From the UHGV virus genome UHGV-0225074: DNA of 64,000 nt. One strand, 5' to 3'. Under the pieces are notes generated by a model. It did not search any database and was not told the DNA's origin. It saw only the letters and a list, made by a program, of their open reading frames with translations. A program made the position numbers and the translations under genes. This document shows positions 8,013 through 57,563 of the stretch, one piece after another. Source of the stretch: a virus. How positions within the stretch are numbered: the first letter of the stretch is position 1; each line of letters starts with the position of its first letter.

Positions 8013-8016
8013 ATCA

Positions 8017-8765: not shown

Positions 8766-8859
8766 AAGAACTCCTTCACAAAAAGATCGACGGCAAAATC
8801 CAGGCCCCGGCGTAGCGGGGGTACTGGATTTGGACGGCGCGGCGCTTCGCGCCCATATG

Positions 8860-9018: not shown

Positions 9019-9026
9019 TTAGTCTC

Positions 9027-9447: not shown

Positions 9448-9461
9448 TATTTTTATCCTCA

Positions 9462-10086: not shown

Positions 10087-10116
10087 CGCTCACCCGCCCA
10101 TAGATGCAGAATTTTT

Positions 10117-10320: not shown

Positions 10321-10412
10321 GATTTCTCCTTTGAAGTTGTTTTTGTATATACTACACTATGCCTGTACATGACGTCAAGATACTTAATTAGAAAAAAAAA
10401 ACTCAAAAAGAC

Positions 10413-10441
10413 TTGCACATAAAAATGTGGCCGTTTATAGT
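10413..10441 (+). promoter_or_regulatory. sigma70-like promoter (TTGCAC-17-TATAGT)
   Basis: Upstream of rightward island gene 10497. Confidence 0.5.
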
Positions 10442-10496
10442 GTGTCTGTCGAAACGAAACGACCTAAAAATAACTTCCATATAGGAGAAATTAAAC

Positions 10497-39785: not shown

Positions 39786-40463
39786 TCAAACAATAATGTT
39801 TGGTTTTTTGAAAGTCCCTGGCTTCATGATTTTACCGCCTTTGTCGAAGAATACGACACGTGGCTCTTCTTTCATATTCTCATCAACAATGGAGAAATGA
39901 ACACCTTCATAGCGTCCACCATTACGCTGTTCGATACAGGTGCATTCTGCCTCAAGGGCTTTTGCCAAGTCAAGGTCTTTATGCAAAGACTGAATTTCAC
40001 TAAGTGTTGGATATTTAGAATCATTAGATTCCAGAACGCTATGCATGTTCTTATGCAATTGCATATCAAGACCAAACAACAAAGCTGTGCTCAATTTAAG
40101 CATCCCCTCATAGTCATCATTCGCAAAAGCATCCAAAGCTTTACCAGGAGAAAACTTAAGGTCCGGATTATAAGTTAAATATTTATCTGAGGATAGCGAA
40201 TAGTTATTACTCAACCAATAAGCATACGACGCCACAACAAACAAGTCACACGCTCCATCAACAACTTCCTTACGGTCATTTTCGATTAATGCTGTAACGG
40301 TTTCTTGTAACTCCTCTCCTACAAACTCCCACTGCTTTCCCAATGGGGTAAATTCACCCTTTGCAGATGCTGCGACAGAATTCCAATCTACAACATGTTT
40401 CGCATACTTAACAAGAGAGGTTGGGCGCAGCATAGCATTCAGAGTATCATAAGCTTCTTTCAT
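39786..40463 (-). CDS. MazG-like nucleotide pyrophosphohydrolase domain protein
   Basis: EELQETVTALIEND ... EVVDGACDLFVVA resembles the MazG EExxE ... D motif. Confidence 0.4.
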   Translation of the reverse strand: MKEAYDTLNAMLRPTSLVKYAKHVVDWNSVAASAKGEFTPLGKQWEFVGEELQETVTALIENDRKEVVDGACDLFVVASYAYWLSNNYSLSSDKYLTYNPDLKFSPGKALDAFANDDYEGMLKLSTALLFGLDMQLHKNMHSVLESNDSKYPTLSEIQSLHKDLDLAKALEAECTCIEQRNGGRYEGVHFSIVDENMKEEPRVVFFDKGGKIMKPGTFKKPNIIV

Positions 40464-41064: not shown

Positions 41065-41544
41065 TTACTGTGCCTTTGTTACGATAATTTGAGTATCAGG
41101 GCGCACAGGGATTTGGGAACCATCGCCGAGAGTCAGGATAACATCCTCCCCCATCGCACCAGTATTCGTTACGGTATAAACCTTTCCGCAAAACATGATC
41201 TCATCACCCTTACGGATTGCTTTAGCTGGGTAGTTCCCAGGTTCCCGATCAGTGTCTTCCAGCGGGTCATATGTTGCATGGAAAATTTCTGATTTGCAAG
41301 GATAGAATTCTCCAGCCACCCCTTTAATTACATAATCCCCAGCAGAGGCTACAACCACCCCCTCTGGGGTTTTTATCTCTACAGTACGACCACAATCACG
41401 AGTGTGGATTTCGGAATCCTTCCACACACCAGTTTCCATCCAATTATGGATCTGCCCTGCGCTGGTTGACGACCCGTCAAACTTATGTGCTTCAACCTCT
41501 ACAGGTTTTTTACGATAAAATCCCATTAGTATACAGGCTCCCAT
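41065..41544 (-). CDS. hypothetical protein (159 aa)
   Basis: ORF. Confidence 0.45.
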   Translation of the reverse strand: MGACILMGFYRKKPVEVEAHKFDGSSTSAGQIHNWMETGVWKDSEIHTRDCGRTVEIKTPEGVVVASAGDYVIKGVAGEFYPCKSEIFHATYDPLEDTDREPGNYPAKAIRKGDEIMFCGKVYTVTNTGAMGEDVILTLGDGSQIPVRPDTQIIVTKAQ

Positions 41545-42827
41545 GTTAATGTATCTAGTTCACGAACGCTTTGGCCCACAGGGAACTGAGGAACACCATC
41601 ATCAGTTCTAGCTTGGAACGTGAAGTTAATAAACTTACCCACCAGCAGGAGCATTCGTTCCTGAGATCTCTCTGCGTGGGTTCCCTTCATTTTACAGTTG
41701 AAACGTGTACCATCTTTCTCTTCGCAGAGTAATACACCCTCACCGTTCTTATCTTCCACAGAATCAAGGACTTTAGCCTCGCCATCTTGGAACAATTTCC
41801 ATTTTAGAAGGTCTGATGAACGCTGTCCAAATTCATACAAGCCTTTGAAGTTTCGGACAATAGAACCTTCAAACCCCCTCTCCATATATTTACCGATGGA
41901 CCATTTAACCTCTCTCTCACAAGAGACAACAATACCATGAACAATGTTAATAAGAGGTACTTCAAGTTCACACTCTACAGCTTCAGCAACGGATAAGAGG
42001 TCTTGGTGACGTGTCTTATCATGATCCGTTGAATACCAAGGACTTCCTGCATTCACAGGAATGTCGAAGATATGGTACTCTAGGTCAAGGCTTGAATAGC
42101 CGCCATAACGATCAACATCTTTAACTGGTTCGATCGCGATAGAGTAAACATCGCCATCAAAATCTTTCCAGCTCTCTTCCCCGTTGTCAACAGCTTTCTG
42201 ATGACGCTTCAGGTCAGACTGGTAATCCTTTTCAATCTCTTCTTCAATCTGCTCTGGTGTACGCCACTTCTTAGCGAGAGCGACAATCTTTTGCAGACTC
42301 AGACCATGAATGTACAGCTCCCCATCGAATTTGTCAAACCCTGAATGCTCAGAAAGGGATTTAACCTGTTTAGACAACTCAGAATCAAGCGGTACAGGAT
42401 ATAGTTTGTTACCACGGCTATTGAATTGTGGGAAGCCATCTGCATCAAGAGTAACCAGAGCACGTACACCATCGAGCTTTGGCTGTACGTATGCTGGATA
42501 AATTATTGATTTATAACGTTTAATTGCATCATGTGCCAGCATTGGGGAGAAGTTCTCTTCCTGTTCAAGCTTGCTTGTATCGTCACGATATCCAAGGCGA
42601 ACCTGTTTCTCCCATTTGGAAACGGCCTCAGCCCATGCTTGCTGTTCTGCGGTGGTTTCGTTAGAACGTCCAACGTTCTTTGGTTCACAGGTGGTAACCT
42701 TTTGTTGCTTCTTGCCACCAACCTTACCAAACTCTACAACTACCTGATTACCAACAATAAAAACCTTCCAACACTGGAAAGATCCATCTTTATTCAGTGC
42801 GAAAAGTGTTGAATTAACTTGTTGCAT
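41526..42827 (-). CDS. ATP-dependent DNA ligase
   Basis: KLDGVRAL motif I (KxDG), 433 aa. Confidence 0.75.
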   Translation of the reverse strand: MQQVNSTLFALNKDGSFQCWKVFIVGNQVVVEFGKVGGKKQQKVTTCEPKNVGRSNETTAEQQAWAEAVSKWEKQVRLGYRDDTSKLEQEENFSPMLAHDAIKRYKSIIYPAYVQPKLDGVRALVTLDADGFPQFNSRGNKLYPVPLDSELSKQVKSLSEHSGFDKFDGELYIHGLSLQKIVALAKKWRTPEQIEEEIEKDYQSDLKRHQKAVDNGEESWKDFDGDVYSIAIEPVKDVDRYGGYSSLDLEYHIFDIPVNAGSPWYSTDHDKTRHQDLLSVAEAVECELEVPLINIVHGIVVSCEREVKWSIGKYMERGFEGSIVRNFKGLYEFGQRSSDLLKWKLFQDGEAKVLDSVEDKNGEGVLLCEEKDGTRFNCKMKGTHAERSQERMLLLVGKFINFTFQARTDDGVPQFPVGQSVRELDTLTWEPVY

Positions 42828-43603
42828 TATTTCTCCTTTGTCTGTAAAACAGTTTTACCTTCAAGGTGATCCTCAACCATTTTAACCAGGCCGGGATTAC
42901 TAAAGGCATCAACAGCTCCGGTACGATAAACTACAACACCCGCATCTTCGTACATCAACTGCTCGTCATATCTAACAGCAGGATTGACAACTACAACTTT
43001 AGTACCCCGCATAACCGCAGGGAACAATTCCCAGTTGAAGTTGATTACCGTGTTTGAACATCCAACAACAATTACAAGGTCTTGGCTTGTCAAGGACTCT
43101 AAGGTATCATACATAGGGCCATAGGCTGGAGCATTTTCACCAAAGAAAATTACGTTTGGTTTACACCAATCATAATCATCAGGATCAATTTGGTCGTAAC
43201 CAATATCGACAATCTCTATCTTCTGAGTGAAAGCATCTTTAACAAGGATCTCTTTCAGATAACCATGTATGTACAGAGTATCTTCTTTCGGTACACCTGC
43301 ACGTTCCAACAAATCATCGACGTTAGTCGTCATGTTGATAACTTGTCCAGGATAACGTTTGTACCATTCAGCAACACGAAGATGTGCAGCATTCGGGTGT
43401 ACCGTTGGTAACTCTGCACGACGCTTGTTATAAAACATGTGCGTTTTATGGTAGAAATTACCACGGAAGGCGTGTATGTTACAAACCTCCTCAAGGTCGT
43501 ATTCATCCCACAGGGCTTTACCAGATTCAGTATCTGTGCGGAATGTACGTACACCACTCTCCGCAGAGAAGCCAGCACCACTTATAACGATAAGACGTCT
43601 CAT
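42827..43603 (-). CDS. Sir2-family NAD-dependent deacylase/ADP-ribosyltransferase-like protein lacking Zn Cys motifs
   Basis: ISGAGFSAESGVRTFR, TTNVDDLLERAG and HG Sir2 motifs. Confidence 0.7.
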   Translation of the reverse strand: MRRLIVISGAGFSAESGVRTFRTDTESGKALWDEYDLEEVCNIHAFRGNFYHKTHMFYNKRRAELPTVHPNAAHLRVAEWYKRYPGQVINMTTNVDDLLERAGVPKEDTLYIHGYLKEILVKDAFTQKIEIVDIGYDQIDPDDYDWCKPNVIFFGENAPAYGPMYDTLESLTSQDLVIVVGCSNTVINFNWELFPAVMRGTKVVVVNPAVRYDEQLMYEDAGVVVYRTGAVDAFSNPGLVKMVEDHLEGKTVLQTKEK

Positions 43604-43824
43604 GGATTTTCCCCTATAACATTATTTATCTCATTCATAGCCTCATTATAACCATTACACCGCTCGGTAATACCTTTCATATAACGAATTTTATTAAGAA
43701 CTCGTAAATTTGAAAACTTCCAGGCTTCCCATGCAGCAGATTTTGCTTCTGGTGTTGACCAAGGATCGCTAAGAGAGTTCCACCAATTTTCGAACGATTC
43801 CCGTAGGTTATTTCCTTTATACAT
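43600..43824 (-). CDS. hypothetical protein (74 aa)
   Basis: ORF. Confidence 0.45.
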   Translation of the reverse strand: MYKGNNLRESFENWWNSLSDPWSTPEAKSAAWEAWKFSNLRVLNKIRYMKGITERCNGYNEAMNEINNVIGENP

Positions 43825-43833
43825 TATCTTTCC

Positions 43834-44241
43834 TTACTGTAATTTCAATGAGTTACGCAGACGACGCTCTTGAGCATCACGAGTTTCCTGCGGAACACTG
43901 TGAATAGAATCATTCCCGTGGCGGTTCTCGACCACTAGGCTGATAACACGATACCCATTCTCCGCAGCGAGATCAAGATAAGGTTTCAGTTCTTTTTCAC
44001 TGGTAGAAGTATTAGACAAGATGATTTTACGAAATTTCCATTCCATCATTTCCTTTACTTGATCTTGGCACCATTTATGCGCTGCCTGGATATTTTCAGG
44101 TTTCCAGTCGTAAACACCATCTTCCGTGTAGTGAAATTTATCTGCTTCACAGATAGGCCACAAACCTTCTGCTAGCATATCTGCAACTGTAGATTTACCA
44201 GCACCAGACACACCGCGCAGGATAATCAGAGTCTTTTCCAT
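43834..44241 (-). CDS. P-loop kinase (polynucleotide kinase-like domain)
   Basis: LRGVSGAGKSTVA Walker A; 135 aa, kinase domain only. Confidence 0.5.
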   Translation of the reverse strand: MEKTLIILRGVSGAGKSTVADMLAEGLWPICEADKFHYTEDGVYDWKPENIQAAHKWCQDQVKEMMEWKFRKIILSNTSTSEKELKPYLDLAAENGYRVISLVVENRHGNDSIHSVPQETRDAQERRLRNSLKLQ

Positions 44242-44250
44242 CTCTTCTCC

Positions 44251-44595
44251 TCAGTAATTGTTTCTCAAGATCGTAATACGATACTTCGAGAAGCTCTCTT
44301 TTGCAAGCATGAACTTTTGTGCAGCAGAAGGGTTAGACGTGTGGACATAGAGTTTAGCATCATGCACAGGAAGTTTCCCATACACAAGCTTCTCTTCCAA
44401 GGCTAACAGGCAGTCATAGCCCTCCATTTCTGAATCTTCACCGAGGTCATTGTCGAAATGCCACTCTGTGACATAACGATAGAACTTTGACCGATTATCA
44501 AGAAAATCCATAAATTTCTGAGAGGTCTTGAACCACAATGCATCAGGATAACCGTAGTCTTTAGGGTCTCTTAAATCGTCAAGCCAGACAATCAT
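44251..44595 (-). CDS. hypothetical protein (114 aa)
   Basis: ORF between kinase and ligase. Confidence 0.45.
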   Translation of the reverse strand: MIVWLDDLRDPKDYGYPDALWFKTSQKFMDFLDNRSKFYRYVTEWHFDNDLGEDSEMEGYDCLLALEEKLVYGKLPVHDAKLYVHTSNPSAAQKFMLAKESFSKYRITILRNNY

Positions 44596-45554
44596 TTTTG
44601 AACTCCAACGTAAAAACGACTATCGCGATCAAAGAGGTCTTCAATCGCAAAATAATCTTCAACAACCTGACGACGTTTTTGAGAGTCCATCCCAGCCCAG
44701 TCGTCTTTAGAGTAATACTCACGAATATGGTCTAGCAACTCGTAATACTCTTCGTCAATACGCTTCTTGGCATCTTTCGGGTTATCCCAGATCATATCCC
44801 ACTTGTTATCACCTCCACGCATCAGGAATTTCTTCGCCAGATAATGTGGGGACTTGATTTTCAAAAGTAGTTCGCTATTTTCGTCATCTGTCCCGATATT
44901 TCGGACAACAAAACCTTCGTGGCTAACAGCATGACTGGCTGCAACGACATCGCCAAATGCACGGACATCCCATTGAGGACGTTTTGCACCGATCACTTCA
45001 GCGATGCGATCAAGTTTGTGCTCTTCAACCATAACACCGTTTAAAGCGAGATCACGGACACCAATCAGATAAGCACCTTCTTTCTCTTCCACAATATGTG
45101 GGTCGCTGCTATCGCATATTTCGAAAATGAAAGTGTAATCTTCACGGAAAGAAATCAGATCAAAATTCATTTTTTCGAGGTACTTACGAGCCAATTCTGA
45201 AAACTCAGAATCCAATGTCCCTGTTGTTGAAACGAGCAGCTTGTCTTTGTGTATTGCCGCTGTAGCCATAAAACCATTGACCTTGCGGGAACAAACAACC
45301 GGTTTGTCAAGAGGAAGGTCAGTTCCATTCTCGAAGCGGTTGAAAATCTTAGTGAAAGGCCAGATAATCACGTTGTCTTCTGAATCAACAACCATGCCAC
45401 GGCACTCAAGCAGTCGTGGGTCAGTATGCCACAGGTTATCCCAGAACACATTGTTCTTATACTTCAGCACAGAAAGACCCGCGAACGGGCCTTCGGTGTA
45501 AGTCTTTTTGGTTACCAGTTTTTTAGCAACCAAATCGTCTACGTTGAATTTCAT
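44592..45554 (-). CDS. Rnl2-like RNA ligase
   Basis: Motif I KVNG, motif IV EGFVVR, motif V K..K (LKIKSPHYLAKK); 320 aa. Confidence 0.55.
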   Translation of the reverse strand: MKFNVDDLVAKKLVTKKTYTEGPFAGLSVLKYKNNVFWDNLWHTDPRLLECRGMVVDSEDNVIIWPFTKIFNRFENGTDLPLDKPVVCSRKVNGFMATAAIHKDKLLVSTTGTLDSEFSELARKYLEKMNFDLISFREDYTFIFEICDSSDPHIVEEKEGAYLIGVRDLALNGVMVEEHKLDRIAEVIGAKRPQWDVRAFGDVVAASHAVSHEGFVVRNIGTDDENSELLLKIKSPHYLAKKFLMRGGDNKWDMIWDNPKDAKKRIDEEYYELLDHIREYYSKDDWAGMDSQKRRQVVEDYFAIEDLFDRDSRFYVGVQK

Positions 45555-45720
45555 GTTCTCTCCTTCGTCTGAGATTTTTCAATAGTTTGAGCACTTCTTT
45601 TTGTGCTGATTTCATTTCACTGTAGTCATCATAGATGCTCAGGTCTAGTTCGTCAACATATTCTTCAAGCTCGCTAATCAAAAAGGCCACGTTATGGATA
45701 AGGTCAAGATCTTTTTTCAT
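45523..45720 (-). CDS. hypothetical protein (65 aa)
   Basis: ORF. Confidence 0.4.
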   Translation of the reverse strand: MKKDLDLIHNVAFLISELEEYVDELDLSIYDDYSEMKSAQKEVLKLLKNLRRRREHEIQRRRFGC

Positions 45721-46060
45721 AACCTTCCGCCTGATAATATGTTGTATTATAAGGAGTTTCGATACTGAAGCTTATCTGGCACATCTCCTGAGCAAGATAT
45801 TTTCCAAGTTCGACAGCCATTGATAATATCTCATGCTCCTGACGCTGGAAACGTGGATACTGCATCAACCGCACAGTCATACCATCTTCGACACCACCTG
45901 TGTAAACATAGGTGCATGGAGCAATCTGCACACAAGCACCTTGCATAACCCACTGGCGACACAAATTCTCGGCCTGAGCATAATCCCCGGCAATGTGAAT
46001 AGTAGCGAAGAAAGACTTCGCCGTGTTACGTGCTATGAAATTTCGTTCTTTGTTATGCAT
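45704..46060 (-). CDS. hypothetical protein (118 aa)
   Basis: ORF. Confidence 0.45.
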   Translation of the reverse strand: MHNKERNFIARNTAKSFFATIHIAGDYAQAENLCRQWVMQGACVQIAPCTYVYTGGVEDGMTVRLMQYPRFQRQEHEILSMAVELGKYLAQEMCQISFSIETPYNTTYYQAEGYEKRS

Positions 46061-46061
46061 C

Positions 46062-46655
46062 TTATTCTCCGTGGTCAGCAGTGTAGATTGGTTTTTTGAG
46101 GCACATCAGGACTGCCTCACGCATCGTCAGAGGACGACCATGAACATCCCAACCTACATCGAGAATACGTCCACCGGGGGCTGTATAGGAGCCGTGGCTA
46201 TGCCCGTGCAACATAACTGACCCGTGGTGTGCTTTGTTCCACGATGCGAACGGATAGTGAGACATACACACATGCACCTTCTCTTTTCCAGTGCTGAAGT
46301 TAATCTCTTTATAATCAACGACTTCATGACCGAATTCACGGAAGATACGTTTCGTATCTCGGTTGTCATGGTTACCACCAACCAGAATGATCTTTCCGTT
46401 GATCTTTTCAAGGATGTCACGAACGCGAGGCTCCATGTAACGTCCGTAAGCAATCACGAAGTCACCAAGGTGCGCTACGACATCATCTGGTTTAACGTGC
46501 TTATTCCAGATTTCAATCATTCCTGCATTCATGGCATACAGACTTTCACGGTCTTCTTTTGGGCCGTACAGTTTCTTCCGGAATTTATCACACGAGGGAA
46601 AACCCAGAATATTGGTGTGCCACCAGTGCGTGTCTGACGTTACGTGGTCGATCAT
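46062..46655 (-). CDS. calcineurin-like metallophosphoesterase
   Basis: SDTHW ... HLGDF ... GGNHD ... GHSH metallophosphatase motifs. Confidence 0.7.
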   Translation of the reverse strand: MIDHVTSDTHWWHTNILGFPSCDKFRKKLYGPKEDRESLYAMNAGMIEIWNKHVKPDDVVAHLGDFVIAYGRYMEPRVRDILEKINGKIILVGGNHDNRDTKRIFREFGHEVVDYKEINFSTGKEKVHVCMSHYPFASWNKAHHGSVMLHGHSHGSYTAPGGRILDVGWDVHGRPLTMREAVLMCLKKPIYTADHGE

Positions 46656-48155: not shown

Positions 48156-48473
48156 ATGGGGTACATTGCAACAGGTAAGCACATCTACGGCAACTTCGAA
48201 CTGAAGCTGCTGTCGGTGACCTGTGCCTCTTCCAATGATAAGATAGTGTACCTATATATGCGGCATCAGTTCCATTACTTCAAATCGATGCGGAAGGAGT
48301 ACCACGAATCGCTGGATAGCATAGCTGATGCAGTTGGCCTATCACGGGCGACCACAACAAGGTGTGTAAGCAACCTTGAGAAATTAAAATGGTTGACAAA
48401 ACATACGACGCGTACCAAGATGGGTCACAACCAAACAATTTATGAAGTACATTCTTGGAAAGAGGAGAAATGA
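48156..48473 (+). CDS. winged-helix HTH DNA-binding protein (105 aa)
   Basis: GGAGGAG RBS; HTH-like SIADAVGLSRATTTRCVSNLEKL. Confidence 0.5.
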   Translation: MGYIATGKHIYGNFELKLLSVTCASSNDKIVYLYMRHQFHYFKSMRKEYHESLDSIADAVGLSRATTTRCVSNLEKLKWLTKHTTRTKMGHNQTIYEVHSWKEEK

Positions 48474-48474
48474 A

Positions 48475-49275
48475 ATGAGTTTAGAACTTCGTCTGAACAA
48501 ACTGGTAGTTCCTGTCGATCACTTTACGTTCAAAGGTGGTGAAGAACAGGTTAGAATCGATATGGCGCATACTCCGAAAGGTGGTATTGGTTTCGTAGAC
48601 ATCACTGCGAAAATTAAAAATTCTACTGATGTTATGGCACTTGCCATGTTGGTGGATGCATGTTCTCGCCTTGAAGGTCTCCATCATACTGCACAATTTA
48701 CTTTGCACTTGCCGTATATCCCATATGCACGTCAGGACCGCGTAATGCAACCTGGTGAAGCGTTATCCATCAAAGTTTTCGCAAATATCGTCAACTCTCT
48801 TGGGTTTGACAAGGTCATTGTCGATGATCCGCATAGCGATGTCTCCGCAGCACTGCTTAACAACGTTAAAATTCGTGGTCAGGATGCTCTTATTGCGGAA
48901 TTCCATGAAGGTCTTGCCGGAAAAGATGTTGTTATCGTTGCCCCTGACGCCGGAGCACGTAAAAAAGCTCAGAAAGTTTCCGATCGTCTCCGCCTCCCTC
49001 TGGTAGAAGCTGGAAAAGTGCGTGACCTGAAGACAAATGAAATTACCGGGACTGCTGTTTTCGGTGATGTTGAAGGCCGCGAGTGTGTTATTGTCGATGA
49101 TATCTGCGATGGTGGTCGAACATTCATTGCCCTGGCACAAGCATTGAAGGCAAAAGGTGCAAAACGTGTTATTCTTTACGTAACTCACGGTATCTTTTCC
49201 TTCGGTAAAGAAGTTATCTACGAAGGCGGCGTTGATGAAATCTACGCGTACCACGACTGGACCGAAAACTTTTAA
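48475..49275 (+). CDS. adps: ribose-phosphate pyrophosphokinase-like protein (Prs family; candidate NARP1 ADPR-PP synthetase Adps)
   Basis: AGGAG RBS before ATG 48475; PRPP-binding VIVDDICDGGRTF loop; paired with Nampt-like gene. Confidence 0.6.
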   Translation: MSLELRLNKLVVPVDHFTFKGGEEQVRIDMAHTPKGGIGFVDITAKIKNSTDVMALAMLVDACSRLEGLHHTAQFTLHLPYIPYARQDRVMQPGEALSIKVFANIVNSLGFDKVIVDDPHSDVSAALLNNVKIRGQDALIAEFHEGLAGKDVVIVAPDAGARKKAQKVSDRLRLPLVEAGKVRDLKTNEITGTAVFGDVEGRECVIVDDICDGGRTFIALAQALKAKGAKRVILYVTHGIFSFGKEVIYEGGVDEIYAYHDWTENF

Positions 49276-49335
49276 TTGACAAATGAATAAGTGGGCGTAC
49301 AATCGCCCTATTAAACAAACAAAGGAGAAACAAAA

Positions 49336-51022
49336 CATGCTTAATCAAGAAAGTCCTATCCTGTTCGCTGACTTTTACAAACCTTCACATATCTCCATGT
49401 ATGATAAACGTTCTGAAATTGTTCAGGATAACATGACCCCTCGTAATGCGAAGCACTTCATCCACTTCGCTGATAACGACCAGCGTGTCATGTTTGCTGG
49501 CCTTCAGGGATTTATTAAGTGGTTCCTTATCGACATGTTCAACAATAACTTCTTCAACCTCCCGAAAGAAGAAGCGGTTGCTGATTATCGTGAGGTTTGC
49601 GACTCCAGCATCGGCATTGGCATGGTAGAAACATGGGGCTTTGAGGCTCTTCATGATCTCGGTTATCTTCCTCTGGAAATCCGTGCTCTTCCAGAAGGGA
49701 CGCTTTCTCCGGTTCAGGTCCCAATGTTTACAATCCAGAATACGCACCCGGATTTTTACTGGTTGCCTAACTTCTTGGAAAGTGTGATCTCCGCAGAAAC
49801 TTGGAAAACTATCACAACTGCAACGACGTTCTGGCAGTATCGCAAGCTGTCTGAAAAATGGGCTGCTGAGACCTGTGATAACAACGACCATGTTGCATTC
49901 CAGAACCACTGCTTCGCATATCGCGGTGAAGCTGGTACTCACGACGCAGCACAGAGCGAATTTGGTCAACTGATCAACTCTATGGGTACAGACACTATCC
50001 CAGCGATTCTGTATGCTCGTCGTTATTACAACATGAAAGGCAAGTTCGTTGCTGGTTCTATTCCTGCATCTGAACACTCTGTTGCAACCACGAACATCGG
50101 CTTTATCGTCGGTCGCCTACAAGGTGAACACCCGGAACTAACTCTGGACGAAGCACGTTTCCTGGCTGAGGTTGAATTCCTGCGTTTCTACATCACGGAA
50201 ATTTTCCCTAAAGGTTTTGTTTCCTACGTGGCAGACAGTTATGACTTCTGGGCGATTATCACCAAAGCAGCAGCGATCCTGAAACAGGACATCATGGCAC
50301 GTGATGGTCGTGTTGTTTTCCGTCCTGACTCCGGCATTCCTGAACATATCATTGCAGGCTATCGTAGCCTCGGTGAGTTTGATGACTGGTCTGATGCGCT
50401 GCCAGCACTACAGGAAGATTCAAATTCAGAAGTTGCCAAGATTGAAGGTAAATACTACCGGATTCTTGTTGACGATGAAGATAATGCCTACTTCGACTTC
50501 CAACCTTCAGGTCTTGAAGAGCATGAAGTTAAGGGTGCAATTCAGTGTCTGTGGGAAATCTTTGGTGGTGAAGTTAACTCCAAGGGTTACAAAGTTCTGG
50601 ACAGTCATGTAGGTCTGATCTATGGTGATTCCATCACTGTTGCTCGTGCAAAAGACATCTTTGAACGTCTGAAAGATAAAGGCTTTGCATCCAGCAATAT
50701 CGTGTACGGTGTTGGTTCCTTTACCACCCAGTATACAACCCGTGATTCACTTGGTATGGCTGTGAAAGCAACTGGCGCTGTGATTGATGGTCAGCAGATC
50801 ATGGTTGTCAAAGAACCGAAGACTGACCTCGGTAAGAAATCTGCAAAAGGTTTCCTGAAGGTTGTTCGTGATGAGAATGGCGAACTGAAACTGGTTGACA
50901 ATTGTCAGCTTGAAGAGGTACAGTCTGAAGATAATGAACTGCGTCGTGTGTTCTACAACGGCAAACTGATTGTCGATGAAGATCTGACAACGATTCGTGA
51001 ACGCGCAGCCGATCAACTGTAA
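49336..51022 (+). CDS. namat: nicotinamide phosphoribosyltransferase-like protein (NadV/Nampt family; candidate NARP1 Namat)
   Basis: AAGGAG RBS before ATG 49336; ILFADFYKPSH matches the Nampt DSYK motif; about 560 aa. Confidence 0.6.
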
Positions 51023-52081: not shown

Positions 52082-52256
52082 TCACTGTATCGCATTCTCG
52101 GAAAGAGACTGGCCTAGTGAAAGTCTGCGTGGTATGTATTATCATTCAGCCTGTACTAACTGCGGGAAGGAGTACATAGGTCCTAAAAGAGAAATTTTCT
52201 GTTTTATTTGCGGGAATAGTAAAAAAGACGTTGACAATGAAACAGGTAATCTATAA
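52062..52256 (+). CDS. zinc-ribbon protein (64 aa)
   Basis: CTNCG ... CFICG; in-frame internal start with GGAG upstream. Confidence 0.45.
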   Translation: MNDLTSNHCIAFSERDWPSESLRGMYYHSACTNCGKEYIGPKREIFCFICGNSKKDVDNETGNL

Positions 52257-52273
52257 TATCTACCACATCAAAC

Positions 52274-52346
52274 GTTCAGTAGCTCAGTTGGTAGAGCAGG
52301 TTCTTCATACGGACAAGGTCAGTGGTTCAATTCCGCTCTGAACGAT
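52274..52346 (+). tRNA. tRNA-Met(CAT)
   Basis: Cloverleaf by eye: CGTTCAG/CTGAACG acceptor, GCTC/GAGC D-stem, loop TTCATAC, T-loop TTCAATT. Confidence 0.6.
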
Positions 52347-52349
52347 AAG

Positions 52350-52424
52350 GCCCTCAAGCTCATTAGGTATGAGCAATCGACTCATAATCGAGAGGTAGGC
52401 AGGTTCGAATCCTCCGGGGGTCAC
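52350..52424 (+). tRNA. tRNA with CAT anticodon (Met/fMet/Ile-lysidine), CCA encoded
   Basis: Acceptor GGCCCTC/GGGGGTC with G-U pairs; loop CTCATAA; T-loop TTCGAAT. Confidence 0.55.
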
Positions 52425-52518
52425 CAATTAAAAATGTTGGCGAGGATATCTGATTGAGTTAGTATCCTCATGAACATAAACGGGACAAATTCCCAAATAA
52501 AATGCAAAGGAGAAAATT

Positions 52519-52830
52519 ATGACTAAGAAAAATACTGCTAAGAAAGTATCCGCCATCGACGCTATCAAACAGCCTTTCCAGTTTGAGTCGAAGTCTACTC
52601 AGACTCATTCTGCACCGCACGATGTGCGTCTCGGTGGTGTAGAGAAAACCGTATCAGTTTTCGATCGCCGTAAAGGCGAGTATAAATCCGAAACCCGGAT
52701 TGAAGGTGGTCAGATTATCTCTGCTTCTTACCGCATCCGCACAGGAAAGACCAAGCGTGAACGTGCTGGTAAGGTAAAGGAAACTAAGGTTGTTGAAACC
52801 GTAGCTCCGAAGAGTAAGAAGAAAAAGTAA
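52519..52830 (+). CDS. Lys-rich basic protein (103 aa)
   Basis: AAGGAG RBS; C-terminal APKSKKKK; inside tRNA array. Confidence 0.5.
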   Translation: MTKKNTAKKVSAIDAIKQPFQFESKSTQTHSAPHDVRLGGVEKTVSVFDRRKGEYKSETRIEGGQIISASYRIRTGKTKRERAGKVKETKVVETVAPKSKKKK

Positions 52831-52892
52831 TTTCTCCGGCATGGGGAATGACGATTCCGTGAAACGTCTTTAAAAACACGGGCATGTTTTCG

Positions 52893-52965
52893 GGGGTATT
52901 AACACAGCGGTTAGTGTAGCGGCCTCTTAAGCCGAAGGTCGAAGGTTCGAATCCTTCATGCCCCA
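52893..52965 (+). tRNA. tRNA-Lys(CTT), CCA encoded
   Basis: GGGGTAT/ATGCCCC acceptor, ACAC/GTGT D-stem, loop CTCTTAA, GAAGG-TTCGAAT-CCTTC T-arm. Confidence 0.6.
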
Positions 52966-53096
52966 CCAAGTTTGAAATGAGAGAGATACGGGTTCGACTC
53001 CCGTTCTTGCTGGCCCGGCTCGCGTAGTGGCACAGGGCGATAGCTTAAATGGACGAAAGTGCTCTCGTTTCAAATCTAAACCAAAAGGAGAACGAA

Positions 53097-53285
53097 ATGT
53101 TCGGATCCCTGTTACGTATGGCTGGCGATATTGTTGGTACTGCTGTTGTTGTCACGGCAACTGTTGCAGAACCTTTTGTAGATGTAGCCGCAGAAGTTCT
53201 TGACGCCGCTGATGAGATTATCGTATCACCTACCGCAGACGTCGTTGGTGAAGTTTGTGACTCCATTAAGGACATTGTACGATGA
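53097..53285 (+). CDS. small hydrophobic/acidic protein (62 aa)
   Basis: AAAGGAG RBS before ATG 53097. Confidence 0.45.
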   Translation: MFGSLLRMAGDIVGTAVVVTATVAEPFVDVAAEVLDAADEIIVSPTADVVGEVCDSIKDIVR

Positions 53286-53419
53286 GTGGCGGTGTTATCT
53301 TTATCATCATGTCAGTGATCTCTTTCCTGCTTGTTCTTTGGTATTATTGGTCATGGTTTGAAAACAACCCTACCACCGAAGAAATAATCAAAGATTCGCT
53401 TGACAAACACAATCTGTAA
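53282..53419 (+). CDS. small membrane protein (45 aa)
   Basis: ATGA coupling; single TM; not in ORF track. Confidence 0.4.
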   Translation: MSGGVIFIIMSVISFLLVLWYYWSWFENNPTTEEIIKDSLDKHNL

Positions 53420-53428
53420 GTGTAGTAT
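53400..53428 (+). promoter_or_regulatory. sigma70-like promoter (TTGACA-17-TAGTAT)
   Basis: Consensus -35 with 17-bp spacer, 30 nt upstream of 53461 gene. Confidence 0.5.
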
Positions 53429-53460
53429 TTAAAACCTAATTTAACGCAAAGGAGAACTTA

Positions 53461-54072
53461 ATGACTGATTCTAAAACTGTAATTTCCGTAACTGAACGTG
53501 CCACTAAAGCAGTAACCACTGCCGCTACTGGTCTGACTAAAGTAGTCGCTGAACTGCAATCTCTGGCAGAAGGGTCTGAAAAGATCAGTCAGGAAATTCA
53601 GTTTAAGCAGCAGGAACTGGGACAAATTGAAGTTCAGTTCAACGAAAAACTGGCAGAAGAAAAATCCAAGCTGAAGATCAAAGTTCTGGAAAATGAAGAT
53701 TCCGTTCTGAACTCTATCCTGAAAGCTCGCGGCCTTGTAGCTGTAGAACCGGGTGTTGTTGAAGACCTTCGTGCAGAGCTGGCGATCTCTCAGCAGAACA
53801 ATGCTGAAGCTGTAGAAAGCGCAGTTGCCGACGTTAAACGTAGCGCTGCAATCGAACTGAATGCGGTTAAGGCAAATCTGGAATCTGCTCACAAGGTTGC
53901 AATTGCAGAACTTACTGCGAATAGCAAGGCTAAGGATGACCGTATTGCAATGCTGACAGAACAGCTTGAAGCAGCGCGTGGTGATCTGAAGGCTGAACGC
54001 GAAACCCGTCTGGAAATCGCAAAAGCTGATGCTAACCGCCAGGGCGTTGTTGTCAACACTGGCAAAAACTAA
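53461..54072 (+). CDS. coiled-coil protein (203 aa), codon-optimised
   Basis: AAGGAG RBS; Ala/Glu/Lys-rich heptad-like sequence; E. coli-preferred codons. Confidence 0.55.
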   Translation: MTDSKTVISVTERATKAVTTAATGLTKVVAELQSLAEGSEKISQEIQFKQQELGQIEVQFNEKLAEEKSKLKIKVLENEDSVLNSILKARGLVAVEPGVVEDLRAELAISQQNNAEAVESAVADVKRSAAIELNAVKANLESAHKVAIAELTANSKAKDDRIAMLTEQLEAARGDLKAERETRLEIAKADANRQGVVVNTGKN

Positions 54073-54146
54073 TGCGTAGTGTCGACACGGATGTCGGCAA
54101 ATATTTGAAGTAACTTAAATTTTAAATTTCATGAGAGGAGAATTCT

Positions 54147-54794
54147 ATGTCTACTAAGATGTCTGTAACCCGCGCTCTGGCTACCCTGACCAAGGTTGAG
54201 GAAAAGATTCAGAAGCGTATCGAAGCGCTGAACACGATTCACATCGCGAAAGGCACTGACGCAAACCGTCAGATCCCAGGCTCTATCCAGAGCGTTGAGG
54301 ACTTCGAGAAATCTGCTCAGGCAGACTTCCAGGGTGTTCAGGATCTTCTGGCTGTTCGCGACGACCTGAAGGCGAAAGTTGTTCAGTCAAACGCTGTAAC
54401 AAAAGTTGAGATCGCTGGCGAGTCTATGACCGTAGCTCAGGCGATTGAACGTAAACGCACCATCGTTTTCAAAGAGCTTCTGCTTGGCAAACTGAAGTCT
54501 CAGTATAATCATGCTCAGGTTCGCCTGAACCGTGATACACAGGAATTCGAAGCGAAGCTTGAAGCTGCTCGTGCTCCATATGTCCAACGTGATAAAGCGC
54601 CAGACGCTGCACAGTTGGCTGTAGTAGAAGCGCCAGTTCGTAGCATGGGAACTCCTTCCATTGTCGACCCACTGGGTCTGGCAGATCGCATTCGTTCTCT
54701 GGAAGCAGAGATTGAAGACTTCAAGTCTAACGTTGACTTTGTTCTTTCCGAGTCAAATGCACGGACTGAAGTAGAGATTGAAGGATCAATCTAA
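54147..54794 (+). CDS. coiled-coil protein (215 aa), codon-optimised
   Basis: GAGAGGAG RBS; same style as 53461 gene. Confidence 0.55.
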   Translation: MSTKMSVTRALATLTKVEEKIQKRIEALNTIHIAKGTDANRQIPGSIQSVEDFEKSAQADFQGVQDLLAVRDDLKAKVVQSNAVTKVEIAGESMTVAQAIERKRTIVFKELLLGKLKSQYNHAQVRLNRDTQEFEAKLEAARAPYVQRDKAPDAAQLAVVEAPVRSMGTPSIVDPLGLADRIRSLEAEIEDFKSNVDFVLSESNARTEVEIEGSI

Positions 54795-55195
54795 AATATT
54801 TGCAGGAATTCTTGATTAACATCTTGTAATTCCTGTGAATAGCTGGTAAAGTTTTTAAATGCTGTTTTTGGTTAGCGAAGTCAGAAACATCTTGCCTCTA
54901 CCGGGGCCGGAGGTTAAACTGCTCCGAACATAATCATATAGGATGATACTTAAACGTATGTTTCCGTCAGTCCGCACAATGATGCGGTTTGATCGAAATT
55001 GTCGAATCGCGAATTCGAAAGACTTCAACATTCAGCATTCAAAGATTATCGTTCAAAGCTTAATGTTTAAACTTGAAGCTTCTAAACCGTAAAGCTAAAA
55101 TTTCTTTGATTACTTAAATCCTGGGTATAGGATCTTAGCTCACAAGATATGGCTAACTGACTCCTCCAGGCTGTTAATCGGAAACAGCATTTCTT

Positions 55196-55268
55196 GCTCG
55201 TATAGCTCAGTTGGTAGAGCAACTCCCTTGTAAGGAGAAGGTCGTGGGTTCAAGTCCTACTGCGAGCA
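55196..55268 (+). tRNA. tRNA-Thr(TGT), CCA encoded
   Basis: GCTCGTA/TGCGAGC acceptor, loop CTTGTAA, T-loop TTCAAGT. Confidence 0.65.
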
Positions 55269-55277
55269 CCAAACAAT

Positions 55278-55349
55278 TTCTCGATAGCTTACTTTGGTTA
55301 GAGCGGTCCCACGATAGGGACGGTACAGGTTCGATTCCTGTTCGAGAAG
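55278..55349 (+). tRNA. atypical tRNA-like gene, anticodon unclear (6-nt loop ACGATA on GTCCC/GGGAC stem)
   Basis: Perfect acceptor TTCTCGA/TCGAGAA, D- and T-arms present, CCA encoded, irregular anticodon arm. Confidence 0.35.
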
Positions 55350-55354
55350 CCAAT

Positions 55355-55460
55355 GCAGGGTAGGCGGTTTGTCAACCGCGAGGTCCATCCAGACCTGAAA
55401 AATATGCCAGAACTAACAGTACGGCTAAATACATAGGTGGTTAGATTCCACCGCCCTGCT
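55355..55460 (+). tRNA. atypical long (106 nt) tRNA-like gene with about 38-nt insert in the variable region
   Basis: Acceptor GCAGGGT/GCCCTGC, D-arm GCGG/CCGC, T-arm GGTGG-TTAGATT-CCACC, CCA encoded; anticodon arm irregular. Confidence 0.3.
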
Positions 55461-55645
55461 CCAAATCTATTCTGCTAGGTTCTGAAACACTTAAAATCTC
55501 CTGCATCTAGTGGGGTGTGATCTCTGTGTCGGCTTTGATATCAAGTTGATGAAAGGGATGGCGTAGGCTCTTCTTCGCAAGTAGAGGCGCTTCGGAGAGG
55601 CAACGGCGGTTGTCAGGACATCGGGACTTCACAAAATAGATTTCT

Positions 55646-55731
55646 GCGGGATTGGTGGTATTGGCAGTACACACGAGGCTTAAGACTTCGTAGGCCTCTG
55701 GGCCTTGAGGGTTCGAATCCCTCATCCCGCA
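55646..55731 (+). tRNA. tRNA-Leu(TAA), type II, CCA encoded
   Basis: GCGGGAT/ATCCCGC acceptor, loop CTTAAGA, variable-arm hairpin AGGCC/GGCCT. Confidence 0.6.
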
Positions 55732-55740
55732 CCAGTTTAA

Positions 55741-55819
55741 GAGGGCGTATCTCAACGGGCTTCTAACCCGTCGTTAATCGAGTAATTGGAGTATGCGGGT
55801 TCGAATCCTGCCGCCTTCG
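55741..55819 (+). tRNA. tRNA-Arg(TCT)-like, atypical (no clear D-arm)
   Basis: Perfect ACGGG-CTTCTAA-CCCGT anticodon arm and T-arm, CCA encoded; only 7 nt between acceptor and anticodon stem. Confidence 0.3.
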
Positions 55820-55938
55820 CCAAATTCACAGGACAGCCGGGACGGGTTTACTCCGAGCTGTGGAAGCGTCGAAAGACTATAGGACACGTCTTGACCCGAA
55901 TGTGTGGGAGCGAATTGAAATAATCGGGTCCCCCAAAA

Positions 55939-56009
55939 GCACGGTTGCTGGAGTGGCAACAGCTTTCTCTGCAAAAGAAATGTCAGGTGTTCGATTCACC
56001 TACCGTGCT
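55939..56009 (+). tRNA. tRNA-Cys(GCA), CCA encoded
   Basis: GCACGGT/ACCGTGC acceptor, TTTCT-CTGCAAA-AGAAA anticodon arm. Confidence 0.6.
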
Positions 56010-56051
56010 CCAAGTTGTTGAATATTTTTATAAAAAATGATAAAATGGCCC

Positions 56052-56080
56052 TTGACAGATAAATTTAAATCTGATAACAT
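56052..56080 (+). promoter_or_regulatory. sigma70-like promoter (TTGACA-17-TAACAT)
   Basis: Consensus -35 upstream of 56098 gene. Confidence 0.35.
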
Positions 56081-56097
56081 TAATAAGTGGGGTTATT

Positions 56098-56448
56098 ATG
56101 GCAGTAAAACAACAACTTACAAAGCGTCGTAGAGGAAAAGGTAGACCCCTTAAAGAAGAGTCTAATGCTATTCAGCTTGAGAAGAATATCCTTGACCTTA
56201 AGACCAATATGATTGCTATGATTCCTGATGCTCATAAGGTATTGAAAGATCTTATGACAAGTGCCACAACAAAGGACAATATCAGGGAAAATATTGCTCG
56301 ATTTGTAATTGAGAAAGGCGAACAAATGCTTTCTGATTACTTCGATGAAGAGAATGAAGAAGCTGAAACAACTAATGTTGATGACAATAAGTCTACTCCT
56401 ATGAGTAGGCCGTTCACAACAGATATTGTTCAGTTCAAACAAGGTTAA
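56098..56448 (+). CDS. hypothetical protein with basic N-terminus (116 aa)
   Basis: ORF inside tRNA array; KRRRGKGRP. Confidence 0.5.
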   Translation: MAVKQQLTKRRRGKGRPLKEESNAIQLEKNILDLKTNMIAMIPDAHKVLKDLMTSATTKDNIRENIARFVIEKGEQMLSDYFDEENEEAETTNVDDNKSTPMSRPFTTDIVQFKQG

Positions 56449-56450
56449 TT

Positions 56451-56531
56451 GGCTCGTTGGCAGAATGGCTATTGCAGCGGATTGTAAATCCGTGCCCTTC
56501 GGGGTTCCTGGTTCGAGTCCAGGGTGGGCCA
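56451..56531 (+). tRNA. tRNA-Tyr(GTA), type II, CCA encoded
   Basis: Loop TTGTAAA on GCGGA/TCCGT stem; variable-arm hairpin; T-loop TTCGAGT. Confidence 0.55.
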
Positions 56532-56540
56532 CCAATTAAT

Positions 56541-56613
56541 GGGAGTATAGCTCAGTCAGTAGAGCGCTCGACCGATAATCGAGAGGTCGCAGGAGCAAAG
56601 CCTGCTACTCCCA
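56541..56613 (+). tRNA. tRNA-Ile(GAT), unusual T-loop AGCAAAG
   Basis: GGGAGTA/TACTCCC acceptor, CTCGA-CCGATAA-TCGAG anticodon arm, CCA encoded. Confidence 0.5.
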
Positions 56614-56706
56614 CCACTCTCCGTCATAGTACCGCATCCTGACGTTTCGGATTGCATAATCAAGGTACTGGGAACTAGTAAGATACTATGACGGGATCGA
56701 TTTAAA

Positions 56707-56780
56707 GCGTTATTAGTGTTAGCGGTCCAGCACTCCGTCCTTCCAAGTCGGAAGCATCGGTTCGAATCCGATATAACGCT
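56707..56780 (+). tRNA. tRNA-Gly(TCC), CCA encoded
   Basis: GCGTTAT/ATAACGC acceptor, loop CTTCCAA, ATCGG-TTCGAAT-CCGAT T-arm. Confidence 0.6.
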
Positions 56781-56864
56781 CCAAATACGCCCCTAAACTG
56801 ATGAACGTCTGCGCGGCTGGAAACACCCACTCAATAGTTCAGATACCCAGGGGCAACAAACAAA

Positions 56865-56937
56865 TGCTCCTATCGGCTAAATGGACAGGCCGTCAGACTT
56901 TCAATCTGGAAATCCGAGTTCGATCCTCGGTGGGAGT
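56865..56937 (+). tRNA. tRNA-Glu(TTC), CCA encoded
   Basis: TCAGA-CTTTCAA-TCTGG anticodon arm, CCGAG-TTCGATC-CTCGG T-arm. Confidence 0.55.
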
Positions 56938-56947
56938 ACCAAATAAT

Positions 56948-57048
56948 GGGTATCTAAGGCGAATTGGAAAACGCCCGGTGAAGTGGGTGCGCACCTTGTA
57001 GCTCACTGGCATACTTGCTGAGGTTCGTTTGAGTCGGACTGATGCCCA
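56948..57048 (+). tRNA. atypical long tRNA-like element (about 100 nt)
   Basis: Acceptor GGGTATC/GATGCCC plus CCA and a good D-arm GGCG-AATTGGAAAA-CGCC; anticodon and T regions do not fold canonically. Confidence 0.25.
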
Positions 57049-57055
57049 CCAAACA

Positions 57056-57135
57056 ATGTGCGGGTAACTTAATTGCTCCGGGAGCAAGCTGGTCTCCAAA
57101 GCCAGTCGTAAGGGGTTCGACTCCTCACCTTCATG
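57056..57135 (+). tRNA. tRNA-Trp(CCA)-like, acceptor stem poorly paired
   Basis: Good D-arm TTGC/GCAA and CTGGT-CTCCAAA-GCCAG anticodon arm; T-loop TTCGACT; 3' G-CCA; 5' end uncertain. Confidence 0.3.
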
Positions 57136-57154
57136 CCAGATAATGGGGGCGACC

Positions 57155-57285
57155 GGATGTTGAAAATGACTATGATCTACCGCTGCAACGGGAAATCTTG
57201 TCGGTCATAAGTAAGCATGGCGGCAACAAAATAAGCTGAGGATTGCAGTCCGATACTTAGCCTGGCTCGGTTTCAGGCGCCCTCA
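57155..57285 (+). ncRNA. long tRNA-like or structured RNA element bracketed by acceptor-like stem GGGGGCG/CGCCCTC
   Basis: Pairing termini only; internal fold unresolved. Confidence 0.15.
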
Positions 57286-57293
57286 CCGATTGT

Positions 57294-57366
57294 AGGGAGA
57301 TGGTGTAATTGGTTAGCACACGGGTCTTTGAAATCCGTAGTTCAGGTTCAAGTCCTGATCTCCCTG
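57294..57366 (+). tRNA. tRNA-Gln(TTG), CCA encoded
   Basis: AGGGAGA/TCTCCCT acceptor, CGGGT-CTTTGAA-ATCCG anticodon arm, T-loop TTCAAGT. Confidence 0.6.
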
Positions 57367-57563
57367 CCAAGTTTGAGTGTTTTCTTTTGAGAATACTCAT
57401 GCGTGGCCTAAGCATTTATCAGATGATGTTCAACCTGTGACGTTGAGGAAGTGGGAGCGATACCCACAGGTCACCCCAATTTGCAGATACGTGATTATCT
57501 CTATCTTCCCACGTCATGTGTTCTAGTCGAGATTTTCGTTTGTACGATATCTGCCGCGAATTT

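Follow-up and report, generated by a model that had tools for sequence, protein, structure and literature searches.

The window analysed here is a stretch of 64,000 nucleotides of the virus genome UHGV-0225074. The gene in question lies on its minus strand (42827..43603), where an open reading frame (ORF) with an ATG start and a TAA stop encodes a Sir2-like protein of 258 amino acids, of class III type and without zinc-ligand cysteines, as judged by Pfam, the match to CobB, an AlphaFold2 (AF2) model and PHROG. The ORF is present exactly where an earlier inspection of the DNA letters (the sequence-only reading) had placed it. Over positions 41500-45600 the window matches Klebsiella phage VLCpiM5a (ON602736.1; Vequintavirinae, Mydovirus) with 100% identity, and other phages of Mydovirus type with 86-93% (for example KpS8, BIS47 and Proteus phage Mydo, the last with 90.7% nucleotide identity over the region). 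GenBank names the product of the ORF 'NAD-dependent deacetylase / Sir2' (UVX29994.1), and a chance ORF is ruled out by the 100% identity to an annotated coding sequence together with hundreds of homologues. It should be noted that in Klebsiella phage vB_Kpn_K45PH128C2 (OY978796.1, 105869-106642) the features under a 100%-identical Sir2 match are named 'nicotinamide-nucleotide adenylyltransferase' and 'unknown function'; should the adenylyltransferase label refer to the Sir2 ORF, a mis-annotation is likely.

The Pfam scan of the protein returned SIR2 (PF02146) alone (79.3 bits against a cut-off of 24, E = 4.4e-22, profile positions 1-178 of 180), and PHROG 2162, 'Sir2 (NAD-dependent deacetylase)', matched residues 1-254 over profile positions 10-276 of 277 (E = 6.3e-111). 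The NCBIfam CobB models were not reached (90.6 bits against a cut-off of 320 for NF040867 and 110.5 bits against 243 for NF001753), and since these scores lie so far under the cut-offs the phage protein is a divergent relative of CobB and not its equivalog. The nearest solved structures by sequence are Escherichia coli CobB (PDB entry 1S5P, E = 9e-20), Archaeoglobus Af1/Af2 and SIRT5. The AF2 model, computed from an alignment of 57 homologues, has a mean predicted local distance difference test score (pLDDT) of 89.1 and a predicted TM-score (pTM) of 0.87, and the 50 matches listed by Foldseek against the PDB are exclusively sirtuins, with CobB first (TM 0.83-0.85, target-normalised). The PADLOC defence models gave no match to the protein at E<=0.01. 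A defence-type SIR2 or another DHS-like family, the latter a doubt raised by the sequence-only reading, is excluded by PF02146 as sole match and by the PADLOC blank. By sequence and by model, the phage protein is a stand-alone canonical-type sirtuin of the class III (CobB/SIRT5) type: CobB, Af1 and SIRT5 are the top PDB matches by sequence and by fold, and a GAGxSAESGIxTFR-type motif is present. With SIR2 as the sole Pfam match, homology to the Tpt1 fold was not found. Among ten long relatives scanned (304-528 amino acids), the domains present were SIR2, one tandem SIR2, WG repeats and RHS repeats, with no RNA-repair fusion.

The sirtuin motifs first recognised by eye were all found in the translation: the NAD+-binding motif GAGFSAESGVRTFR (residues 9-22; 43538..43579, minus), which is also conserved; NVDDL (residues 94-98; 43310..43324, minus), which by alignment and conservation carries the N/D pair of (T)QN(I/V)D; and the catalytic His113-Gly114 (43262..43267, minus), aligned with CobB H147. 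To these is added the Tyr-x-x-Arg pair of class III, Y58-N-K-R61 (43421..43432, minus), aligned with CobB Y92/R95. In an alignment of 57 homologues extending down to about 57% identity (mean column identity 55%), the NAD+-binding residues G9, A10, G11, S13, F21, R22, N94, D96, G181, S183 and N207 are invariant, as are S16 and G17 of GAGFSAESGVRTFR, the catalytic H113, the FGE-loop residues F153, F154 and E156, and Y58, R61 and R62; the FYNxRR signature is kept in 118 of the 120 homologues listed. Two motifs deviate: by alignment, the Gln of TQN(I/V)D is replaced by Thr93 (43325-43327, minus), and the acyl-lysine-binding V-x-P motif is without its Pro and reads V-I-N-F. The active site of the phage sirtuin is intact and the protein apparently an active enzyme; because the catalytic and NAD+-binding residues are so strongly conserved, it is fair to infer that it consumes NAD+.

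This conservation also bears on the proposal, suggested earlier by the domain name only, that the protein has no catalytic activity and serves as a decoy for, or an inhibitor of, host defences based on SIR2. Catalytic and NAD+-binding residues that stay invariant across divergent homologues indicate selection for catalysis, and the protein, a stand-alone enzyme domain with nothing added, bears no likeness to the defence SIR2 families; nothing in the analysis supports a decoy, which we regard as very improbable. The defence SIR2 NADases (ThsA, DSR1/2, SIR2-HerA, SPARSA) belong to the same superfamily and cleave NAD+; unlike them, the phage protein is a canonical PF02146 member, has no partner domain and is phage-encoded. 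The defence SIR2 domains, too, are not known to have a Cys4 zinc site.

The acyl pocket was mapped through the CobB residues named in the PDB titles of the engineered variants Ac2/Ac3 (A76G, Y92A, I131C/L, V162A/G and V187Y), of which A76G, I131C and V162A are visible as differences between the aligned wild-type CobB and Ac2 chains. CobB A76, Y92, I131 and V187 correspond to C41, Y58, V95 and V151 of the phage protein, each of them invariant, and CobB V162 corresponds to I131, a position that is hydrophobic among the sequences shown. With four of the five mapped positions invariant and the fifth hydrophobic, both the acyl-lysine tunnel and the Tyr/Arg pair of class III have been retained. The phage protein shares with CobB (PDB entries 1S5P and 6RXJ) the GAGxSAESGxxTFR motif, the N/D pair, the catalytic His, Y-x-x-R, the V-x-x-FGE loop and the hydrophobic pocket, but it is only about 28% identical, lacks the zinc-ligand cysteines, has Thr93 for Gln and V-I-N-F for V-Y-P, and is encoded by a lytic phage within an RNA-repair/ligase array. 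Human and zebrafish SIRT5, a desuccinylase/demalonylase, shares the class III fold and the Tyr/Arg pair (Foldseek E of about 1e-14 to 1e-15, TM of about 0.7), but it has a Cys4 zinc site and is a eukaryotic mitochondrial protein, and its sequence match to the phage Sir2 is limited to residues 2-116. Tyr102 and Arg105 of SIRT5, like their counterparts in CobB, recognise succinyl and malonyl groups.

Our preferred reading, put forward tentatively and with somewhat less than even confidence, is that the phage Sir2 is an active lysine deacylase with the ordinary sirtuin mechanism. We favour it because the elements of the acyl-lysine tunnel are strictly conserved, the Tyr/Arg pair is kept and the phyletic spread of the gene, described below, is largely independent of that of RNA ligase. 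NAD+ would occupy the site formed by GAGxS, N94 and D96, and the acyl-lysine side chain would enter a hydrophobic tunnel made of C41, V95, I131, V151 and F153/F154, at the end of which Tyr58 and Arg61 would favour short or acidic acyl groups (succinyl, malonyl). The acyl oxygen would attack C1' of the nicotinamide ribose, nicotinamide would leave, His113 would activate the ribose 2'-OH, and the products would be free lysine and O-acyl-ADP-ribose. The freed nicotinamide could be recycled by the nicotinamide phosphoribosyltransferase (NAMPT) and the ribose-phosphate pyrophosphokinase (Prs) of the phage. Fold, motif conservation, loss of zinc ligands and gene context are shown here; enzymatic activity, acyl preference and targets are inferred. 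At a guess, the targets may lie in nucleic-acid repair or translation, as suggested by the recurrent linkage of the gene to RNA-end-healing and ligase genes. If the enzyme is indeed a deacylase, phages would actively remodel the lysine acylation of host or phage in the course of infection.

The absence of a CxxC zinc module, pointed out by the sequence-only reading, is borne out. The protein has three scattered cysteines (41, 147 and 182) and no CxxC, and in the HMMER alignment three ribbon cysteines of CobB fall on phage F125, D145 and C147 and one in a CobB-only insertion. There is no Cys4 structural zinc site, and CxxC is missing in all of the 120 close homologues listed. The metal-free remnant of the ribbon (residues 115-147, YLKEILVKDAFTQKIEIVDIGYDQIDPDDYDWC; 43163..43261, minus) forms in the AF2 model an ordered β-hairpin with strands 114-122 and 129-133 (block pLDDT 94-96). 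In the structure prediction, named earlier as a way to confirm the loss of the module, the ribbon itself persists without its ligand cysteines.

When 1.84 billion representatives were searched exhaustively, the nearest relatives proved to be zinc-less, and from about 45% identity down they are mixed with CxxC...CxxC forms around a common 'IGY' ribbon motif. The number of ribbon cysteines in 143 aligned relatives is at least three in 82, two in 4 and at most one in 57, and Fitch parsimony on a crude neighbour-joining tree places zinc at the root, with at least five losses. The catalytic residues are retained in both groups. Position 93 is Thr in 41 of the 57 zinc-less relatives and Gln in 70 of the 82 zinc-type ones, so that the change from Gln to Thr correlates with the loss of the zinc cysteines. 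Since the ribbon is confidently predicted to fold without cysteines, and since zinc-type and zinc-less members share the IGY motif and the catalytic set, the loss of zinc is no sign of lost activity; it is a recurrent, tolerated change in this lineage and not decay. The family provides naturally occurring cases in which the small domain of a sirtuin seems to fold with no zinc.

A phage sirtuin without a zinc ligand site has been described before, for the Sir2/CobB of the Vibrio phages phiSt2, phiGrn1 and KVP40 (Skliros et al., 2016; PMC5107563). The authors suggested salt bridges as a substitute for zinc, linked the enzyme to the phage NAMPT and nicotinamide mononucleotide (NMN) adenylyltransferase (NMNAT), proposed that it deacetylates host proteins, with acetyl-CoA synthetase as an example, and named T5, SPC35, GAP32, My1 and JD001 as carriers of homologues. 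These Vibrio phages differ from the phage studied here in being Straboviridae. The Sir2 proteins of Vibrio phages nt-1 and ValKK3, which we take to belong to the KVP40-like group, are about 41-42% identical to our query; in nt-1 no RNA ligase or cREC is annotated beside Sir2, and the two neighbours scanned had no Pfam match.

In the window, the Sir2 gene belongs to an array of thirteen co-directional genes on the minus strand, spanning 46655 to 39786, in which successive genes overlap or lie no more than 9 nt apart; no convincing terminator was seen inside it, in a scan for consensus promoters and terminators that barely exceeded the shuffled expectation. The first gene of the array inspected encodes a calcineurin-like metallophosphoesterase (46062..46655; Pfam Metallophos, 1.8e-06) and is followed by two small ORFs. 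Next come a T4 Rnl1-type RNA ligase (44592..45554; Pfam RNA_lig_T4_1, 2.5e-13, and GenBank), a protein with a cyclic-phosphate processing receiver (cREC) domain (44251..44595; Pfam cREC_REC, 1.7e-17) and a P-loop kinase (43834..44241; Pfam AAA_33, 2.6e-09; phrog_2071, with a weak match to phrog_505 'polynucleotide kinase' at 6e-08). A 74-residue ORF of unassigned function (43600..43824; phrog_343) separates the kinase from Sir2, which is followed by an ATP-dependent DNA ligase (41526..42827; Pfam DNA_ligase_A_M and OB_2), three ORFs of unknown function and, as the last gene, a MazG/PRA-PH-like nucleotide pyrophosphohydrolase (39786..40463; Pfam PRA-PH, 3.9e-05, and GenBank). The first of the three ORFs, 159 residues long and just 3' of the DNA ligase (41065-41544, minus), belongs to phrog_419, with a weak PHROG link to 'nucleotide pyrophosphohydrolase' and a sub-threshold PGDYG match.

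The DNA ligase is thus adjacent to and co-directional with Sir2, in keeping with the sequence-only reading, but the junction described there must be corrected: Sir2 lies upstream of the ligase, and it is the stop of Sir2 that overlaps the start of the ligase, by 1 nt (TAATG). The ATGA overlap is in fact formed by the stop of the 74-residue ORF and the start of Sir2. The most informative part of the context, the array of Rnl1, cREC, P-loop kinase and phosphoesterase genes, had been overlooked. Together, the kinase, phosphoesterase and Rnl1 (43834-46655, minus) amount to a full set for the healing and sealing of RNA, similar to T4 Pnkp/Rnl1 or Clostridium Pnkp, and the putative cREC protein sits between the ligase and the kinase.

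Iyer, Burroughs, Anantharaman and Aravind (2022; PMC9503650, section 3.7.3) have described a distinct clade of phage sirtuins in three types of neighbourhood, without a macro-domain partner; the zinc site is not discussed there. One of the three, the V5/Mydo type (sirtuin, T4-like tRNA ligase, cREC, kinase, MazG and calcineurin-like phosphoesterase), is that of the window, with no structural difference, and is confirmed here in a single array. The gene annotation, the loss of zinc and the neighbourhood are therefore all previously on record, and no new object is described here. The same authors proposed that the sirtuin removes 2'-phosphates from RNA as KptA does, i.e. that it works as an RNA 2'-phosphotransferase like Tpt1/KptA, a possibility that we consider unlikely, though it is the chief rival of the deacylase reading. 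In such a scheme, host anticodon nucleases or other metal-independent RNases would leave a 2',3'-cyclic phosphate, which would be opened by cREC or a 2H enzyme to give a 2'-phosphate; the kinase would add a phosphate to the 5'-OH, allowing Rnl1 to close the nick; and the sirtuin would then move the 2'-phosphate to NAD+, yielding nicotinamide and ADP-ribose-1'',2''-cyclic phosphate, to be cleared by phosphoesterases or Nudix enzymes. Tpt1/KptA resembles the phage sirtuin in consuming NAD+, releasing nicotinamide and being linked to RNA ligase, but its fold is unrelated and the likeness would be one of function only. In favour of the scheme, Tpt1 and sirtuins follow formally parallel two-step chemistries, with an O-nucleophile attacking C1'' and the ribose 2''-OH then attacking the acyl or phosphoryl centre.

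On the other hand, conservation is complete both for the FGE loop and for the narrow hydrophobic tunnel that receives acyl-lysine, whereas an internal 2'-phosphate of RNA, which sticks out much less than the side chain of lysine, would presumably require a cleft that is open and cationic. The phage Sir2 is acidic (pI 5.1, which is also the family median), a poor fit to an RNA phosphate, but this is weak evidence since the RNA ligase of the window is acidic as well (5.3). Moreover, T4 Pnkp/Rnl1 and CthPnkp are complete healing-and-sealing sets, and with a kinase, a metallophosphoesterase and Rnl1 the array already holds a full one, for which no removal of a 2'-phosphate is needed. Stated in its strongest form, namely that the sirtuin clade acts on RNA ends and not on proteins, as a non-orthologous replacement of Tpt1/KptA that removes the 2'-phosphate or ADP-ribosylates a terminal phosphate during the repair of tRNAs cut by defence systems, the idea appears to us slightly less probable still. 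The zinc-less ribbon and Thr93 would then be part of a re-tooled substrate cleft.

The sequence-only reading had also spoken of an operon that rebuilds NAD+. Prs (48475..49275, plus; Pfam Pribosyltran, Pribosyl_synth and Pribosyltran_N) and a NAMPT-family protein (49283..51004, plus; Pfam NAPRTase, 9.3e-27, and GenBank) are indeed encoded on the opposite strand, about 5 kb from Sir2, and supply the NMN-forming half of such a pathway. The half that would complete it is not seen: no credible NMN adenylyltransferase was found in the window by tblastn with the C-terminal NMNAT/Nudix fragments of phages CBB and 7t3, a weak test that covers 64 kb of a 142-kb genome. In E. coli, CobB is reported to form a complex with Prs in which it is stimulated and shielded from inhibition by nicotinamide (preprint, bioRxiv 10.1101/2020.12.09.417477). 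Directly 5' of Prs and NAMPT lies a gene for a small winged-helix protein (48156-48473, plus) with a weak 'wHTH-PRTase associated' match, which may serve specifically to regulate the genes for NAD salvage. Downstream of them, at about 52237-57504 on the plus strand, GenBank annotates at least ten tRNA genes (Met twice, Thr, Leu, Cys, Tyr, Ile, Gly, Glu and Trp). Such a cluster is consistent with pressure from host defences that target tRNA, a point that also agrees with the Tpt1-like scheme.

We then compared the neighbourhoods of Sir2 in 59 IMG/VR loci, with flanks of up to 10 kb on each side, and in GenBank loci. In most loci of Vequintavirinae type, the kinase, RNA ligase and phosphoesterase genes lie upstream of Sir2 and the DNA ligase and MazG genes downstream, with NAMPT and Prs at 5-8.5 kb, and cREC was detected in fewer of them. 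The linkage between Sir2 and DNA ligase is kept in this type and in a 146-kb contig, where the order is sirtuin, ORF, ATP-dependent DNA ligase, ORF and MazG, with Prs and NAMPT upstream. In most of the T5-like loci examined, a HAD_SAK_2 'Swiss-army-knife' HAD phosphatase is encoded about 0.8 kb downstream of Sir2 and PhoH about 4 kb upstream. The jumbo phages CBB and 7t3 carry NMNAT-Nudix, NAMPT, a 2H protein (Acb1-family match), the sirtuin, a Nudt16-like Nudix protein (fused to cREC in CBB) and PIN-PhoH. A 608-kb phage contig encodes, at 7582-10552, an Rnl1-like ligase of 407 residues, an arginase-fold protein, a 109-residue ORF and a Sir2 homologue (38% identity), and in a 279-kb phage contig the neighbours of Sir2 are DUF4326 and a nucleoside 2-deoxyribosyltransferase-like protein. 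In the Phapecoctavirus phage ukendt, eight neighbours of Sir2 were scanned, which belong to DUF families or have no Pfam match, and no partner could be recognised. Overall, linkage to RNA ligase or to cyclic-phosphate processing enzymes is found here and in three other lineages and is missing in Phapecoctavirus, and nicotinamide-recycling genes lie near Sir2 here and in at least three other lineages, with NAMPT at 1.4-8.5 kb in several.

This survey cuts both ways for a Tpt1-like enzyme. It extends the linkage with RNA-end processing to the T5-like phages (HAD_SAK_2), to CBB and 7t3 (2H, Nudt16-like/cREC and PIN-PhoH) and to the 608-kb contig with its Rnl1-like ligase. However, the T5-like phages are most of the carriers, and in most of their loci examined the flanks contain no match to the RNA ligase, cREC, kinase or NAMPT queries. 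The Sir2 of Phapecoctavirus has no recognisable RNA-repair neighbour, and the 2H phosphoesterase upstream of Sir2 in Salmonella phage 7t3 matches the anti-CBASS (cyclic-oligonucleotide-based antiphage signalling system) family Acb1 (4510-4956 of the locus, E = 1.7e-16). The 'RNA repair' neighbourhood there could equally be read as an anti-signalling island.

By tblastn, homologues of Sir2 occur in 978 of 50,697 phage records (about 2%; Escherichia 374, Salmonella 289, Klebsiella 131, Vibrio 50), among them T5-like, rV5-like, KVP40-like and jumbo phages, whereas homologues of the window's RNA ligase occur in 681 records with a different spectrum (Escherichia 199, Pseudomonas 175, Vibrio 83, Streptomyces 73, Salmonella only 14). 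The two phyletic patterns coincide only partly, and each gene is therefore common without the other. These counts imply that the T5-like carriers of Salmonella and Escherichia are largely without this RNA ligase, and that the approximately 250 ligase-carrying phage records of Pseudomonas and Streptomyces are largely without the sirtuin. As each gene can do without the other, a function that comes strictly after that ligase is disfavoured. In four records, namely OR847503.1 (Listeria phage LM 4-11-1, 2.7 kb) and MG065672.1, MG065689.1 and MG065646.1 (Campylobacter phages A141/A110a/D1, 137-146 kb), the Sir2 or RNA ligase genes score like those of Escherichia phages with genomes of comparable size, and the host labels look doubtful.

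The neighbourhoods of the jumbo phages raise another explanation, in which the sirtuin would be an ADP-ribosyltransferase, or an NAD+ glycohydrolase under regulation, whose target is a host protein, the end of a nucleic acid or a small molecule; it would form part of a counter-defence island that also includes NAMPT/Prs, Nudix, cREC and Acb1-like proteins. Sirtuins can ADP-ribosylate (cited in PMC9503650), and the proximity of NAMPT in several lineages, the flanking of Sir2 by NMNAT-Nudix/NAMPT and by Acb1-like 2H and Nudt16-like/cREC proteins in the jumbo phages, and its DUF4326 and deoxyribosyltransferase-like neighbours in the 279-kb contig would all fit such an island. Yet SirTM has an operonic macro-domain partner, and none was found at the phage Sir2 in a Pfam scan of 15 neighbouring ORFs. 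Nor was a defence sensor or effector partner recognised among the scanned neighbours of this stand-alone 258-residue domain, and the SIR2 NADase models of PADLOC were unmatched. In addition, a free NADase would oppose the phage's own NAD+ salvage, and the class III acyl pocket is conserved. We consider this explanation improbable, more so than an action on RNA ends, and the remaining probability goes to substrates outside the readings set out here.

The preferred reading of the phage Sir2 as a lysine deacylase has its own difficulties, and five points weigh against it. Biochemical data for members of the phage family were not found in the literature searched, which holds no enzymology or genetics for any phage sirtuin and consists of annotations, two in-silico papers and papers on defence systems. 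The CobB cut-offs of NCBIfam are missed by a wide margin, hence the protein is no CobB equivalog. The pocket is not identical to that of characterised deacylases, because Thr93 stands in place of Gln and V-x-P has lost its Pro (VINF). Enterobacterial hosts already own CobB, and the gain from a second deacylase is unexplained. Finally, a linkage with RNA-end processing in four phage lineages is not what a generic protein deacylase predicts.

The phage sirtuin family is widespread and a reasonable target for biochemistry. If the enzyme proved to be Tpt1-like, it would be a sirtuin fold with an activity on nucleic acid and would provide an NAD+-dependent step of phage RNA repair tied to NAD+ salvage. 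An enzyme acting on RNA ends would be the first of the sirtuin fold shown to work on nucleic acid, and would help to explain why these phages carry NAMPT and Prs.

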